Positions 5,870 to 50,397 are shown, counted from the stretch's first letter. The stretch is 64,000 nucleotides of DNA from an uncultured archaeon (GCA_964347045.1 CAYFXC010000007.1:23853-87852); one strand, 5' to 3'. Notes: generated by a model from the letters alone, not told the origin. A program made the numbers and translations.

Positions 5870-5993
5870 TGGTAGCCCGGCGCGGATTCGAACCGCGGTC
5901 CCAAGGTTTCTCCACCATCTTGAATGTGGATCCAGAGCCTCGGATGATTGACCAAGGTGCATACCCCAAGTGAGCACTCTACACTACCGGGCT
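5870..5993 (-). tRNA. tRNA-Gln(CUG) with two introns: position 15/16 (5955-5978) and 37/38 (5908-5931); CCA encoded
   Basis: Acceptor AGCCCGG/CCGGGCT, T arm CGCGG-TTCGAAT-CCGCG, anticodon CTG at 5933-5935; removing the two 24-nt BHB-type inserts gives a canonical archaeal tRNA-Gln with A1:U72. Confidence 0.9.
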
Positions 5994-46726: not shown

Positions 46727-47707
46727 ATGACCATTGTTGATTTGCTAGATAAAGCAACTCTTCGATTTCTCCTTTTTGGAGGGAAGGGGGGAGTAGGTAA
46801 AACAAGCAGTGCCGCCGCTTCCGCACTTTGGGCAGCTGAACATGGTCGAGAAACTATTGTAATTAGTACAGATCCTGCGCACAGTCTTGGAGACTGCTTT
46901 GCCCAGGATATCAGTGGTGGAGAAGTCATTCCCATCAAAGGCGTAAAGAACCTTTACGGAATGGAAATCAACCCCCAAAAAGCATACGAAGAGTACAAAG
47001 AAACTGCACAACAATCCGACACAGGCGAAATCGGCTCGATGGGTGATATGATGGGTCTTGAGGATCTCGCAGACATGAATGCTCCTGGATCAGATGAAGC
47101 ACTTGCCTTTTCCAAAGTACTAGAATTTATTCATAAGTGCGAATATGATCTAGTTGTCTTTGATACTGCTCCTACAGGCCACACACTTCGCCTTTTAGGG
47201 CTCCCAGAAATGCTTGACAGCTTTTTTGGAAAACTCATCAAATTCCGAATGCGATTCAGTAGCATGTTTAGCCGATTAAAATCGATATTCGGACGAGGAG
47301 ACCCAAAAGGAGAAGACCGGTCTTTGGAAAATCTCGAGAACCTTAAAGTCGCCATTAATGAAGCACGGGTTGAACTCACTGACCCGACACGAACTAGCTT
47401 TGTCATTGTTATGATTCCTGAAGCTATGGCAGTATCTGAGACTGAACGCCTTTTACAAACACTCTACGAATATCAAATTCCAAGTAGCCATATTATTGTG
47501 AACATGGTTTTCCCAGATATTCCAAATTGTCAATTTTGTAGGGCTAGAAAAACCATGCAGACCCAATATTTAAGCCAAATTCATGAGATTTATGACGATT
47601 TCATGATTACAGAGATTCCTCTCTTCGAAGAAGAGATTCGGGGTATCCCTGCTCTAACACGTCTTTCAAGTTTATTGGCCACGGGTGTATTTCCAGAAAA
47701 AAGGTGA
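46727..47707 (+). CDS. get3: Get3/TRC40-type ArsA-family ATPase
   Basis: GGKGGVGKT, STDPAH, DTAPTGHT, Met-rich groove and insert, CQFC zinc motif; single domain; no ars genes nearby. Confidence 0.8.
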   Translation: MTIVDLLDKATLRFLLFGGKGGVGKTSSAAASALWAAEHGRETIVISTDPAHSLGDCFAQDISGGEVIPIKGVKNLYGMEINPQKAYEEYKETAQQSDTGEIGSMGDMMGLEDLADMNAPGSDEALAFSKVLEFIHKCEYDLVVFDTAPTGHTLRLLGLPEMLDSFFGKLIKFRMRFSSMFSRLKSIFGRGDPKGEDRSLENLENLKVAINEARVELTDPTRTSFVIVMIPEAMAVSETERLLQTLYEYQIPSSHIIVNMVFPDIPNCQFCRARKTMQTQYLSQIHEIYDDFMITEIPLFEEEIRGIPALTRLSSLLATGVFPEKR

Positions 47708-48539: not shown

Positions 48540-48636
48540 CGCTAATCAGCTTCAGACTTGTCAATACAAGGCTTTGGATAGCCCATTGGTAGACAAATAG
48601 CAGATGCAGAGGGGGTTATACCTTCTAAATATAAGA

Positions 48637-48649
48637 GGAAAGCTTTTTG
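48637..48649 (+). promoter_or_regulatory. BRE/TATA-like promoter of tRNA-His
   Basis: GGAAAGCTTTTTG matches the GAAA-n-TTT(A/T) elements upstream of other genes in the window (e.g. near 23446, 26946, 48170). Confidence 0.4.
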
Positions 48650-48691
48650 TGGGAGGGCTTGGTTCAACATTTCTTCGTGCCGGGGCACCGT

Positions 48692-48846
48692 GCCGGGATT
48701 ATGTTGGTAAGTATTTACCAGCTCCCGAAGGTGTAAACTGGTAATTACCCAGGCGCAATGGTAGCATTGAAGCCTGTGGAACCCTATCCTCATGGATAGG
48801 ATGCTGAGAGCTTTAGGTCGGGGTTCGAATCCCTGTCCCGGCACCA
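48692..48846 (+). tRNA. tRNA-His(GUG) with three introns: 8/9 (48700-48729), 15/16 (48737-48758), 37/38 (48780-48808); A73, CCA encoded, no encoded G-1
   Basis: Acceptor GCCGGGA/TCCCGGC; T arm CGGGG-TTCGAAT-CCCTG; anticodon GTG at 48776-48778; the spliced product is a complete cloverleaf with an A15:U48 pair; lies immediately upstream of hisS. Confidence 0.85.
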
Positions 48847-48861
48847 TTTTTCACTATCAAC

Positions 48862-50397
48862 ATGAATAATAGAGAGAAGTACGAACATGAGTTGATGAAA
48901 ATGAAACGCGGAAAAGATCTAGCCGTTGGTGGATTTCGAGATTTCTACCCTGAACTTTATCAACGAATTGATAGAATACTTCAAGCCTTCCGTGAGACTC
49001 CTAAATTGTTTGGTTATATCGAATATGAGTGCCCAACAGTTGAACCACTAGAACTATATCAGTTGAAATCCGGACCATCACTCGTTGAAGAAACTTTCAA
49101 AGTCACAGATCGCAAAGACCGGCAGCTTGTATTGCGTCCAGAAACAACACCCTCTCTTGCTAGGATGCTTGCCGCCCAACAGCAGTATTATCCACGCCCA
49201 ATACGGTGGTTTTCAATTTCGCGCGTATTTCGAGATGAAACCCAACAACGAGGGCGCGTTAAGGAATTTTGGCAATTGAATGTCGATATTTTAGGCACCG
49301 AAGATGTCGCCGCTGATGCCGAAGTTATCAACGTGCTCGCAGCAATCATTCTAAGCCTTGACTTCACACCAAAAGATTTCGTTATTCGGATCAATGACCG
49401 GCGCTTAATCCAAAGTTTCATCGAATCATTGAAACTTACCAATTACACAGAGATTATACGAGTCTTAGACCGGCGCGAAAAACTCTTACAAGAATCCATT
49501 GTTGACCGGCTCACAAAAATCGGTACCCCAGCAAAAAAAGCGGACCAAATTGCCCTCAAACTTCGTCATTTCTATATTGGAAAACAAAAAGCCGAACCAA
49601 AACTTCCAGCTTCTAAAGAAATTACAGAATTGAAAAAAAGTCTTCCACAACTTCAACGTCAGGCACTTATCAATGCACTTCGAAAAACGGGTATTACTCA
49701 ACAGGCAGCAGAACGACTCACTGATTTTTCTGCAATTCGAGGAACACCAAAAGATTTCCTTAAGGCCATGGATGACATAAAACTTGACAAATCAACTCAA
49801 CGAACCTTAGGCCCTCTTAGGCAACTCGCTATGCAATTGAATGACTTAGGAATAACAGATGTCTGTGAATTTGATGCAGGAATAGCCCGGGGGCTTGATT
49901 ATTACACGGGCATCGTCTTTGAAGCTTGGGACCGCCGTACGGGATTACCTCGAGCAATTGCAGGAGGAGGTCGCTATGATGATCTTGTCGGCATTTTTGA
50001 AGGACAACGACTGCCAGGGACTGGATTCGGTTTTGGTGAGACTGTAATTTTGGAACTTGCTGAAGAAATGAACTTGCTTCCACCCCCAGAACCACCCGCT
50101 GAAATCTATTTAGCTCCGGTCTCAAAGAAACAACTAAGCAGTTGTCGAGAAGTCGCCTCACTCCTCCGAGCAGCGGGAATAAGGACACTTTTCAATGGTT
50201 TTTCATGGTCACTAACCAAACATCTTGAGGATGCCAGTAAACGTCAGATCCCATTTGTTGCTATCATTGGACCTCAAGAACTTGCCAAAAAGGTCGCTAA
50301 TGTCCGTGATATGAAGACTGGTAAAGAGCAGTCAGTTAAGATCACAAAATTAGCAGATTTCATTCAAGAAAAGCTTCAAAAAAGAACCAAATCTTGA
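48862..50397 (+). CDS. hisS: Histidyl-tRNA synthetase
   Basis: GFRDF.P, LRPETTP, RGLDYYTG, GGGRYDDL, anticodon-binding C-domain; start may be a little further downstream. Confidence 0.96.
   Translation: MNNREKYEHELMKMKRGKDLAVGGFRDFYPELYQRIDRILQAFRETPKLFGYIEYECPTVEPLELYQLKSGPSLVEETFKVTDRKDRQLVLRPETTPSLARMLAAQQQYYPRPIRWFSISRVFRDETQQRGRVKEFWQLNVDILGTEDVAADAEVINVLAAIILSLDFTPKDFVIRINDRRLIQSFIESLKLTNYTEIIRVLDRREKLLQESIVDRLTKIGTPAKKADQIALKLRHFYIGKQKAEPKLPASKEITELKKSLPQLQRQALINALRKTGITQQAAERLTDFSAIRGTPKDFLKAMDDIKLDKSTQRTLGPLRQLAMQLNDLGITDVCEFDAGIARGLDYYTGIVFEAWDRRTGLPRAIAGGGRYDDLVGIFEGQRLPGTGFGFGETVILELAEEMNLLPPPEPPAEIYLAPVSKKQLSSCREVASLLRAAGIRTLFNGFSWSLTKHLEDASKRQIPFVAIIGPQELAKKVANVRDMKTGKEQSVKITKLADFIQEKLQKRTKS

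Follow-up and report, generated by a model that had tools for sequence, protein, structure and literature searches.

A tRNA-His gene of Ca. Hermodarchaeum with three small introns and a leader copy of its own 5' end that probably lets the first intron splice

Introduction

Multi-intron tRNA genes were reportedly described in the Thermoproteales by Sugahara et al. in 2008. Their relaxed motifs are cut by an (alpha-beta)2 EndA with a specific loop (reviews PMC4033280, PMC4090602), and no helper leader is described in the reviews consulted. The intron positions given in a 2014 review are 3/4, 20/21, 22/23, 25/26, 29/30, 30/31, 45/46, 53/54, 56/57, 59/60 'etc.', with no mention of 8/9. Among Asgard archaea, the Atabeyarchaeia and Freyarchaeia have introns in 92-95% of their tRNA genes, often several to a gene and at non-canonical sites (PMC11291895, 2024), and Asgard tRNA genes can carry up to five intervening sequences each (Goswami et al. 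2026, preprint 10.64898/2026.10.13.758758). The same preprint reported that tRNAscan-SE systematically omits Asgard D-arm introns, that most Asgard genomes encode two EndA paralogues, consistent with an (alpha-beta)2 enzyme, and that the introns were gained repeatedly, with gain and loss between close relatives and no arrival route identified. Hermodarchaeia are not named in its main text; the preprint groups sites at junctions and in the acceptor stem under 'other' and mentions no leader copy of an acceptor strand. Flanking non-tRNA sequence that pairs for splicing is known from the precursors of split and permuted tRNAs (Nanoarchaeum equitans, Caldivirga, Cyanidioschyzon merolae), in which the BHB itself is built from leader and trailer, both of which EndA removes.

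Here we analysed a tRNA-His gene of Ca. Hermodarchaeum. Like the interrupted Asgard genes reported in 2024 and 2026, which likewise have several small BHB-type introns, many of them non-canonical and missed by annotators, this gene belongs to an Asgard host, has three introns, two of them at non-canonical positions, and is missed by ARAGORN and Rfam. It is thus a new example of a known Asgard phenomenon, that of multi-intron tRNA genes with missed D-arm introns and a two-subunit EndA. The novelty lies in the leader, where the 5' acceptor strand is present in a second copy (48677-48684); such copies were associated strictly with 8/9 introns in a census of tRNA genes.

Results

The window, meaning the whole 64-kb stretch of DNA that was analysed, is C7:23853-87852 in an 83-contig, 2.58-Mb MAG that is 88.9% complete. 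Comparative sequence analysis confirmed 48692-48846 on the plus strand as a genuine tRNA-His(GUG) gene with four exons and three small BHB introns. When the introns were removed in silico (48700-48729, 48737-48758, and 48780-48808), ARAGORN recognized a 74-nt tRNA-His with a regular cloverleaf and anticodon GUG. Removal of introns 1 and 2 alone was sufficient for ARAGORN -i to call tRNA-His with a 29-nt intron after position 37. The unspliced gene escaped detection, in that ARAGORN found no tRNA in the whole window and Rfam found no family at gathering score, as the original prediction had anticipated when it supposed that annotation would miss the gene.

All features of the gene lie on the plus strand. 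Exon 1 (48692-48699) reads GCCGGGAU and supplies tRNA positions 1-8, its bases 3-6 doubling as the central helix of BHB 1. It is followed by intron 1 (48700-48729), which is 30 nt long, sits at position 8/9, and has a relaxed BHB made of the central helix and an inner hairpin. Exon 2 (48730-48736) is a 7-nt, invariant GGUGUAA that supplies positions 9-15 with the 5' strand of the D-stem. Intron 2 (48737-48758; 22 nt) interrupts position 15/16, exon 3 (48759-48779; 21 nt) supplies positions 16-37 with the anticodon GUG at 48776-48778, and intron 3 (48780-48808; 29 nt) occupies the canonical 37/38 site with an hBHBh' motif. Exon 4 (48809-48846; 38 nt) covers positions 38-76, including the T-arm and the 3' acceptor strand, and ends in GCACCA, with the discriminator A73 at 48843 and an encoded CCA at 48844-48846. 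Directly after the CCA there is a T-run (48847-48851), invariant in 12/12 congeners, that likely serves as the transcription stop. A BRE/TATA-like box, GGAAAGCTTTTTGTG (48637-48651), was found upstream of every orthologue in both genera and may act as the promoter. A register with G48692 as G-1 paired to C73 was tried and rejected, since the T-stem would be broken and the acceptor and D stems would be separated by a single base. A 101-aa open reading frame on the minus strand (48542-48847) covers the whole tRNA gene; it has no Pfam match and was taken as spurious, and gene callers may label it a hypothetical protein.

A 4-bp central helix was found at each of the three introns. BHB 1 has the core CGGG/CCCG with bulges AU|U and AA|G, BHB 2 has GUGU/GCGC (two G.U pairs) with bulges AA|A and AA|U, and BHB 3 has CUGU/GCUG, with one U.U mismatch in this genome and a perfect GCAG in most relatives. 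Applying the BHB cutting rule (two 3-nt bulges, cut after the second bulge base) placed the junctions at U8|G9, A15|U16, and G37|A38. Inner helices were present at all three introns, being CUGG/CCAG in intron 2. The outer helix is provided by the anticodon stem for intron 3 and by the leader alone for intron 1, and there is none for intron 2, which is therefore of the relaxed type. An alternative register of BHB 1, GGGA/UCCC, was rejected as it leaves two extra bases and conflicts with the orthologues that lack intron 1.

Thirteen congeneric genomes were found to share the locus at 81-92% identity, and a sister genus contributed four more. Intron 1 is absent in three sister-genus genomes (L014, L016, L017), where GCCGGGAT runs directly into GGTGTAA, and the 8/9 junction is unambiguous for this reason. 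Intron 3 is absent in three of the four sister-genus genomes (L015-L017) and present in L014, and intron 2 was found in all 16 family loci. For junctions 2 and 3, a slide of 1-2 nt would give the same product by sequence alone, and it is the BHB rule that sets them at 15/16 and 37/38. Both were seen unbroken in an intron-free tRNA-His on two metagenome contigs (L069, L075) of an unrelated AT-rich organism. This tRNA shares a 35-nt core, GGTGTAATGGTAGCATTGAAGCCTGTGGAGCTTTA, base for base with the predicted spliced product, and in it exon 2 is contiguous with exon 3. Searched against the species-representative collection, a pattern anchored on exons 2 and 3 had no matches outside Hermodarchaeota-type MAGs, Ca. 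Hermodarchaeum yapensis among them. When other Asgard families were searched for tRNA-His by BLAST, 14 distant loci were returned, all of which (14/14) were other tRNAs. Two MAGs titled Odinarchaeota and Thorarchaeota (L023, L025) carry a Hermodarchaeum-type locus and belong to the same genus as the window genome, and their titles look outdated.

Conservation and covariation were measured in an alignment of 12 congeners. Exon 1 was 100% identical and exon 3 was 99.2% identical; the exons as a whole were 99-100% identical, versus 52% for the interior of intron 1 and 67% for that of intron 3. The proposed structure paired in 95.4% of cells, compared with 37-46% when the partners were slid. Eleven pairs were changed on both sides, and none of 500 shuffles matched the observed score. 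The central helices of BHB 1 and BHB 2 were paired in 100% of cells and that of intron 3 in 95.8%. Compensatory change was found in 8 of the 9 pairs of the intron 1 inner helix and in three inner pairs of intron 3. The helices of intron 2 were 100% paired yet nearly invariant, giving no covariation within the genus; in the sister genus a U:A replaces U.G in the central helix. As a whole, intron 2 was 90.6% identical across species, well above introns 1 and 3, and all unconstrained folds placed its CCAGGC in a predicted pairing with GCCUG.GG from the anticodon arm. With the cloverleaf, the natural unbroken junctions, and the compensatory changes in 12 species, the proposal of a triple-intron tRNA-His with an 8/9 intron and a 7-nt internal exon was borne out. 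Its coordinates and BHB cores, including the single mismatch in the helix of intron 3, agreed with the sequence, and its remark that 8/9 is not among the familiar positions is in line with the list in the 2014 review, which ends in 'etc.'.

The original prediction had left room for another tRNA-His, and none turned up in the genome: ARAGORN with introns allowed (ARAGORN -i) gave 34 tRNAs without a His, RF00005 gave 27 matches with none at another His-like locus, and BLAST with the exons of this gene matched this locus only. The gene is followed 16 nt after its CCA by hisS (48862-50397, plus strand), which encodes a 511-aa histidyl-tRNA synthetase (PF13393, E = 5.7e-50) and is found at a single locus in the genome. 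The synteny of tRNA-His and hisS was kept in all family loci (L002-L017) and also in the unrelated L069 and L075. The match of the synthetase falls into two parts, with what appears to be an insertion lying between them at about residues 232-272. A gene for an ArsA/Get3-type ATPase (46727-47707; PF02374, E = 2e-94) lies upstream of tRNA-His and hisS.

The extra G-1 of tRNA-His, either encoded or added by Thg1 opposite C73 or A73, was not found at this locus. Position -1 (48691) is U, or A in one species, and position 73 is A, leaving the tRNA without G-1 and C73, the identity elements usual for His in Archaea. None of 19 family genomes, with completeness of 72-91%, yielded a Thg1 (PF04446). 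Most Archaea are reported to encode G-1 (PMC3061083). The tRNA-His of Trypanosoma and Acanthamoeba is G-1-less (PMC4338351, PMC3561963), and the Hermodarchaeum gene likewise encodes no G-1. Eukaryotic cytosolic tRNA-His, which is matured by Thg1, shares with it the discriminator A73 and the lack of an encoded G-1, but no Thg1 was found here. U-1 and G-2 can pair with A73 and C74. The missing G-1, the A73, the failure to find Thg1, and the incompleteness of the MAG (88.9% complete) could be taken as signs of a pseudogene in decay, or of a sequence that resembles a tRNA by chance, with His decoded by a gene that was not assembled. We regard this as extremely improbable, since the introns turn over in a compensatory manner among 12 species whose exons are invariant, the same single locus stands beside hisS in every family genome in which the locus was assembled, and both the promoter box and the T-run are conserved. 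It is instead highly likely that this locus is the single functional tRNA-His(GUG) gene of the genome, with the precursor, leader, and splicing scheme proposed below.

Two EndA-family genes were found in the genome, encoding proteins of 186 aa (L021:1222-1779) and 199 aa (L022:1465-2061), both with the N- and C-terminal EndA domains (PF02778 and PF01974). The 186-aa protein best matched the catalytic chains of crenarchaeal heterotetramers (3p1z_B, E = 6e-45). Its Tyr, His, and Lys at what we take to be the catalytic positions of EndA are identical to those of 3p1z_B in the alignment, which runs without a gap through the loop region ...GKPLGIRKPKTTEFDRPSQLS.... The 199-aa protein has Thr where the catalytic His aligns, and it also matched the non-catalytic partner chains 3p1z_A, 3ajv_A, and 3iey_B. 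Of the two paralogues one alone carries the catalytic Tyr-His-Lys, and the pair fits an (alpha-beta)2 enzyme of the type that accepts relaxed BHB motifs. The expectation of a relaxed endonuclease agrees with this, the genome encoding a probable broad-specificity type with an alpha subunit having Tyr/His/Lys and a beta subunit without the catalytic His. RtcB is also encoded, and we infer from these gene contents and motifs that the three introns would be cleaved by EndA and the exons ligated by RtcB.

BHB 1 poses a problem of folding. It needs acceptor bases 3-6 as its central helix, and because it uses these bases it cannot coexist with the acceptor stem. A possible solution was found in the leader. 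Thirteen bases upstream of exon 1, GUGCCGGG (48677-48684, plus strand) is a degenerate direct copy of tRNA bases -2 to 6 and is complementary to the 3' acceptor strand together with A73 and C74 (48837-48844). It is followed by GCACC (48685-48689, plus strand), which is complementary to G9-U13 of exon 2 and could provide an outer, exon-holding helix for BHB 1. Across the 12 species, pairing of the copy was kept in 100% of cells. The GCACC variants AUACC, ACACU, and GCAUC of other species still paired, in 98.3% of cells; taken together the two leader pairings held in 99.4%, and every common substitution keeps the pair. The partners are invariant exons, so that these figures express consistency and not covariation. 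Cross-species identity was 88% for the leader copy, 74% for the rest of the leader, 68% for the 3' flank, and 52% for the intron 1 hairpin. The promoter-like box ends a constant 30 nt from the first acceptor-like sequence, which is the leader copy in genes with intron 1 and the true 5' end in genes without it; the leader copy should therefore be transcribed. Intron 1 and the leader copy were present together in the 13 congeners, in G017, and in 3 metagenome variants, and absent together in G015, G016, and G018.

The precursor was folded from 48670 in two-dimensional models at 37 C without proteins. In the MFE fold, the copy paired with the 3' acceptor strand, GCACC with exon 2 (GGUGU), and exon 1 with the 3' end of intron 1; the ensemble probabilities were 0.99 for the copy and 0.81 for GCACC:exon 2 (RNAfold). 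The probability of the BHB 1 central helix was 0.98 with the leader and 0.23 without it, while that of the true acceptor stem was 0.00 with the leader and 0.76 without it. The cost of a strict BHB 1 was 3.8-5.2 kcal/mol with the leader and 5.2-10.5 kcal/mol without it. We propose that transcription would start from the promoter-like box about 55 nt upstream and end at the T-run after the encoded CCA, yielding a precursor with three BHB introns (8/9, 15/16, 37/38) that would be spliced by proteins. In this precursor the leader copy would occupy the 3' acceptor strand and so free the true 5' strand for BHB 1, and GCACC would pair with the 7-nt exon 2, both as an outer helix for BHB 1 and as a tether for the micro-exon. 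After splicing, the true 5' strand would displace the leader copy, and RNase P would remove the leader. Both the function of the leader and its hand-over to RNase P are what we infer. With all introns removed, the model still preferred the leader copy over the true 5' strand (probability of the true acceptor stem 0.01), and the hand-over therefore would need tertiary folding or proteins that are absent from the model. On the evidence of pairing, conservation, and folding, the spare copy of the 5' end in the leader probably lets intron 1 splice.

The position of the copy raised the question of which copy is exon 1. If the upstream copy were the real exon 1, the intron would be about 43 nt long and would reach from that copy to exon 2; the copy does stand at the ancestral distance from the promoter box, and in one congener (G009) it reads exactly GCCGGGAU, so that either copy gives the same product there. 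This reading is nonetheless very improbable. Most species have GCCGGGGC, GCCGGGUC, or GCUGGGAC at the upstream copy, which would put a non-U at position 8 and often a G.U at 7:66, and there is no inner helix beside the 5' splice site, whereas the downstream site has a 9-pair covarying helix. The upstream copy was rejected as exon 1 on these two grounds, the non-U at position 8 and the missing inner helix.

We further surveyed the genome for 8/9 introns and leader copies by scanning for a T-arm with CCA and a complementary 5' acceptor strand, a census that covers uninterrupted T-arms only and is not exhaustive. It gave 35 tRNA genes, 33 of which encode CCA. A normal D-arm follows base 8 directly in 32 of them, and no second fully pairing copy was present within 60 nt upstream of any of these 32. 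The remaining three had an 8/9 intron with a 3' end complementary to bases 3-6, and all three carried a leader copy (Fisher p = 1.5e-4 across the 35 tRNA genes); downstream control regions gave one match in 35. Besides tRNA-His, the genes with 8/9 introns were a tRNA-Leu(UAA) on contig C1 and a Ser-like class II gene on contig C59. The tRNA-Leu gene (C1, about 237965-238124, minus strand; L077) has a 23-nt 8/9 intron and was not called by ARAGORN. Its leader has, 42 nt upstream, the copy GCGGGGG and after it a D-arm-like sequence, and in the fold the copy takes the 3' strand with a probability of 1.0. Intron and copy were present in 14/14 aligned family members, with the copy invariant in both genera save for a one-base gap in L092. 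All tRNA-Leu orthologues having both, they show conservation and add no further co-transition. The Ser-like gene (C59:1403-1552; L076) has anticodon UGA, the 8/9 intron, and at least one more intron near the anticodon. Its leader copy reads GUCGGGAU-CUGAG, and the probability of its BHB helix was 0.85 with the leader and 0.00 without it. No full-length orthologue of the Ser-like gene was found in the family; its contig is 2.8 kb long, and the gene may be of contaminant or strain-specific origin.

These data allowed two accounts of the leader copy to be compared. The first, to which we give about even chances, is that 8/9 introns are spliceable only by means of a leader 'stand-in' copy, which would hold the 3' strand and, in tRNA-His, also splint the micro-exon. 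The second, which we consider unlikely though well worth weighing, is that the copy is a neutral footprint of intron arrival or of a partial 5' duplication and has no role in splicing. In two of the three genes the copy reaches into D-arm-like sequence and resembles a partial gene duplication: on C59, GUCGGGAU-CUGAG compares with GCCGGGAU-GG-CUGAG, and the tRNA-Leu leader resembles an acceptor strand with a D-arm. This extension in the Leu and Ser-like genes suggests that the copy may have arisen when the 5' part of the gene was partially duplicated. The His copy, for its part, stands at the site of the 5' end in intron-less genes, as if about 43-48 nt had been inserted once. A neutral relic should decay, however, and the His copy was 88% identical against 74% for the surrounding leader, 68% for the 3' flank, and 52% for the intron interior. 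All substitutions in the copy keep pairing, the Leu copy is invariant in two genera save one gapped base, and the predicted effect of the copy on BHB 1 formation is large in two genes. Moreover, an origin by duplication and a present function are not mutually exclusive.

Whether the introns have to be removed in order was also considered. According to the original prediction, exon 2 contributes to both BHB 1 and BHB 2 and the two motifs probably form in sequence. We found that their cores use disjoint bases, G9 being in the 3' bulge of BHB 1 and G10-U13 forming the central helix of BHB 2, and that forcing all three BHBs together cost 14.2 kcal/mol, less than the 18.8 kcal/mol summed over the single motifs. 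The BHBs are therefore structurally compatible, and the model dictates no order. An obligatory order, intron 1 and then intron 2, is a doubtful possibility, in favour of which three results can be named: the leader GCACC and the GCGC of intron 2 compete for G10-U13, the sole competition, at about 2 kcal/mol, the probability of leader:exon 2 pairing fell from 0.81 to 0.14 once intron 1 was removed, and BHB 2 cost 5.1-7.0 kcal/mol with the leader and 3.4-4.8 kcal/mol without it. Cutting both introns at once would also leave a free 7-nt exon held by 4-5 base pairs only. Against such an order, in addition to the disjoint cores and the joint cost, the cost of BHB 2 did not fall after removal of intron 1 with the leader in place, going from 5.1 to 6.4 kcal/mol. 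BHBs are usually not thermodynamically favoured alone; BHB 2 and BHB 3 never were, costing 5-9 kcal/mol, and the models say little on both. Stepwise splicing is plausible on steric grounds and as a way to retain the 7-nt exon.

Discussion

Compared with the closest described systems, the locus differs in its host and in its leader. The Thermoproteales, to which the original prediction had turned for reference, are of a different phylum from the Asgard host found here, and tRNA genes with as many as five introns have already been published for Asgard archaea. Of that prediction as a whole, the gene, the introns, the enzyme type, and the omission by annotators stood, and the ordered splicing and the Thermoproteales frame did not. 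The leader recalls the split and permuted tRNA precursors, in which flanking sequence also pairs for splicing. In contrast to these, the Hermodarchaeum leader holds a cis copy of an exon that would occupy the 3' acceptor strand and let the real 5' strand enter a BHB, and its removal would need RNase P.

With this gene, Hermodarchaeia join the Asgard lineages with heavily interrupted tRNA genes. A BHB that borrows the acceptor strand is at odds with the tRNA's most stable helix, a conflict that a decoy encoded in the leader appears to resolve. If true, the leader copy would act in cis as an RNA folding device dedicated to tRNA splicing, new to print, and partial 5' duplication could be a route by which 8/9 introns become fixed. 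If confirmed, the leader decoy would explain where such introns persist, would offer a testable handle on the origin of Asgard tRNA introns, and would make a duplicated 5' acceptor strand a simple signature for hidden 8/9 introns. A second testable oddity is a U-1/A73 tRNA-His without Thg1 beside its synthetase, in the closest prokaryotic relatives of eukaryotes.

A whole isoacceptor, His, was invisible to common tRNA finders, which bears on estimates of MAG completeness and on inferences from codon usage. On the whole genome, His, Gln, and Lys were missing from the ARAGORN calls, and Gly and Val had a single call each; a dozen or more tRNA genes are therefore probably hidden by introns. Within the window, at 5870-5993 on the minus strand (C7:29722-29845), ARAGORN in intron mode called a tRNA-Leu(CAA) for which the intron position given (27,43) is implausible.
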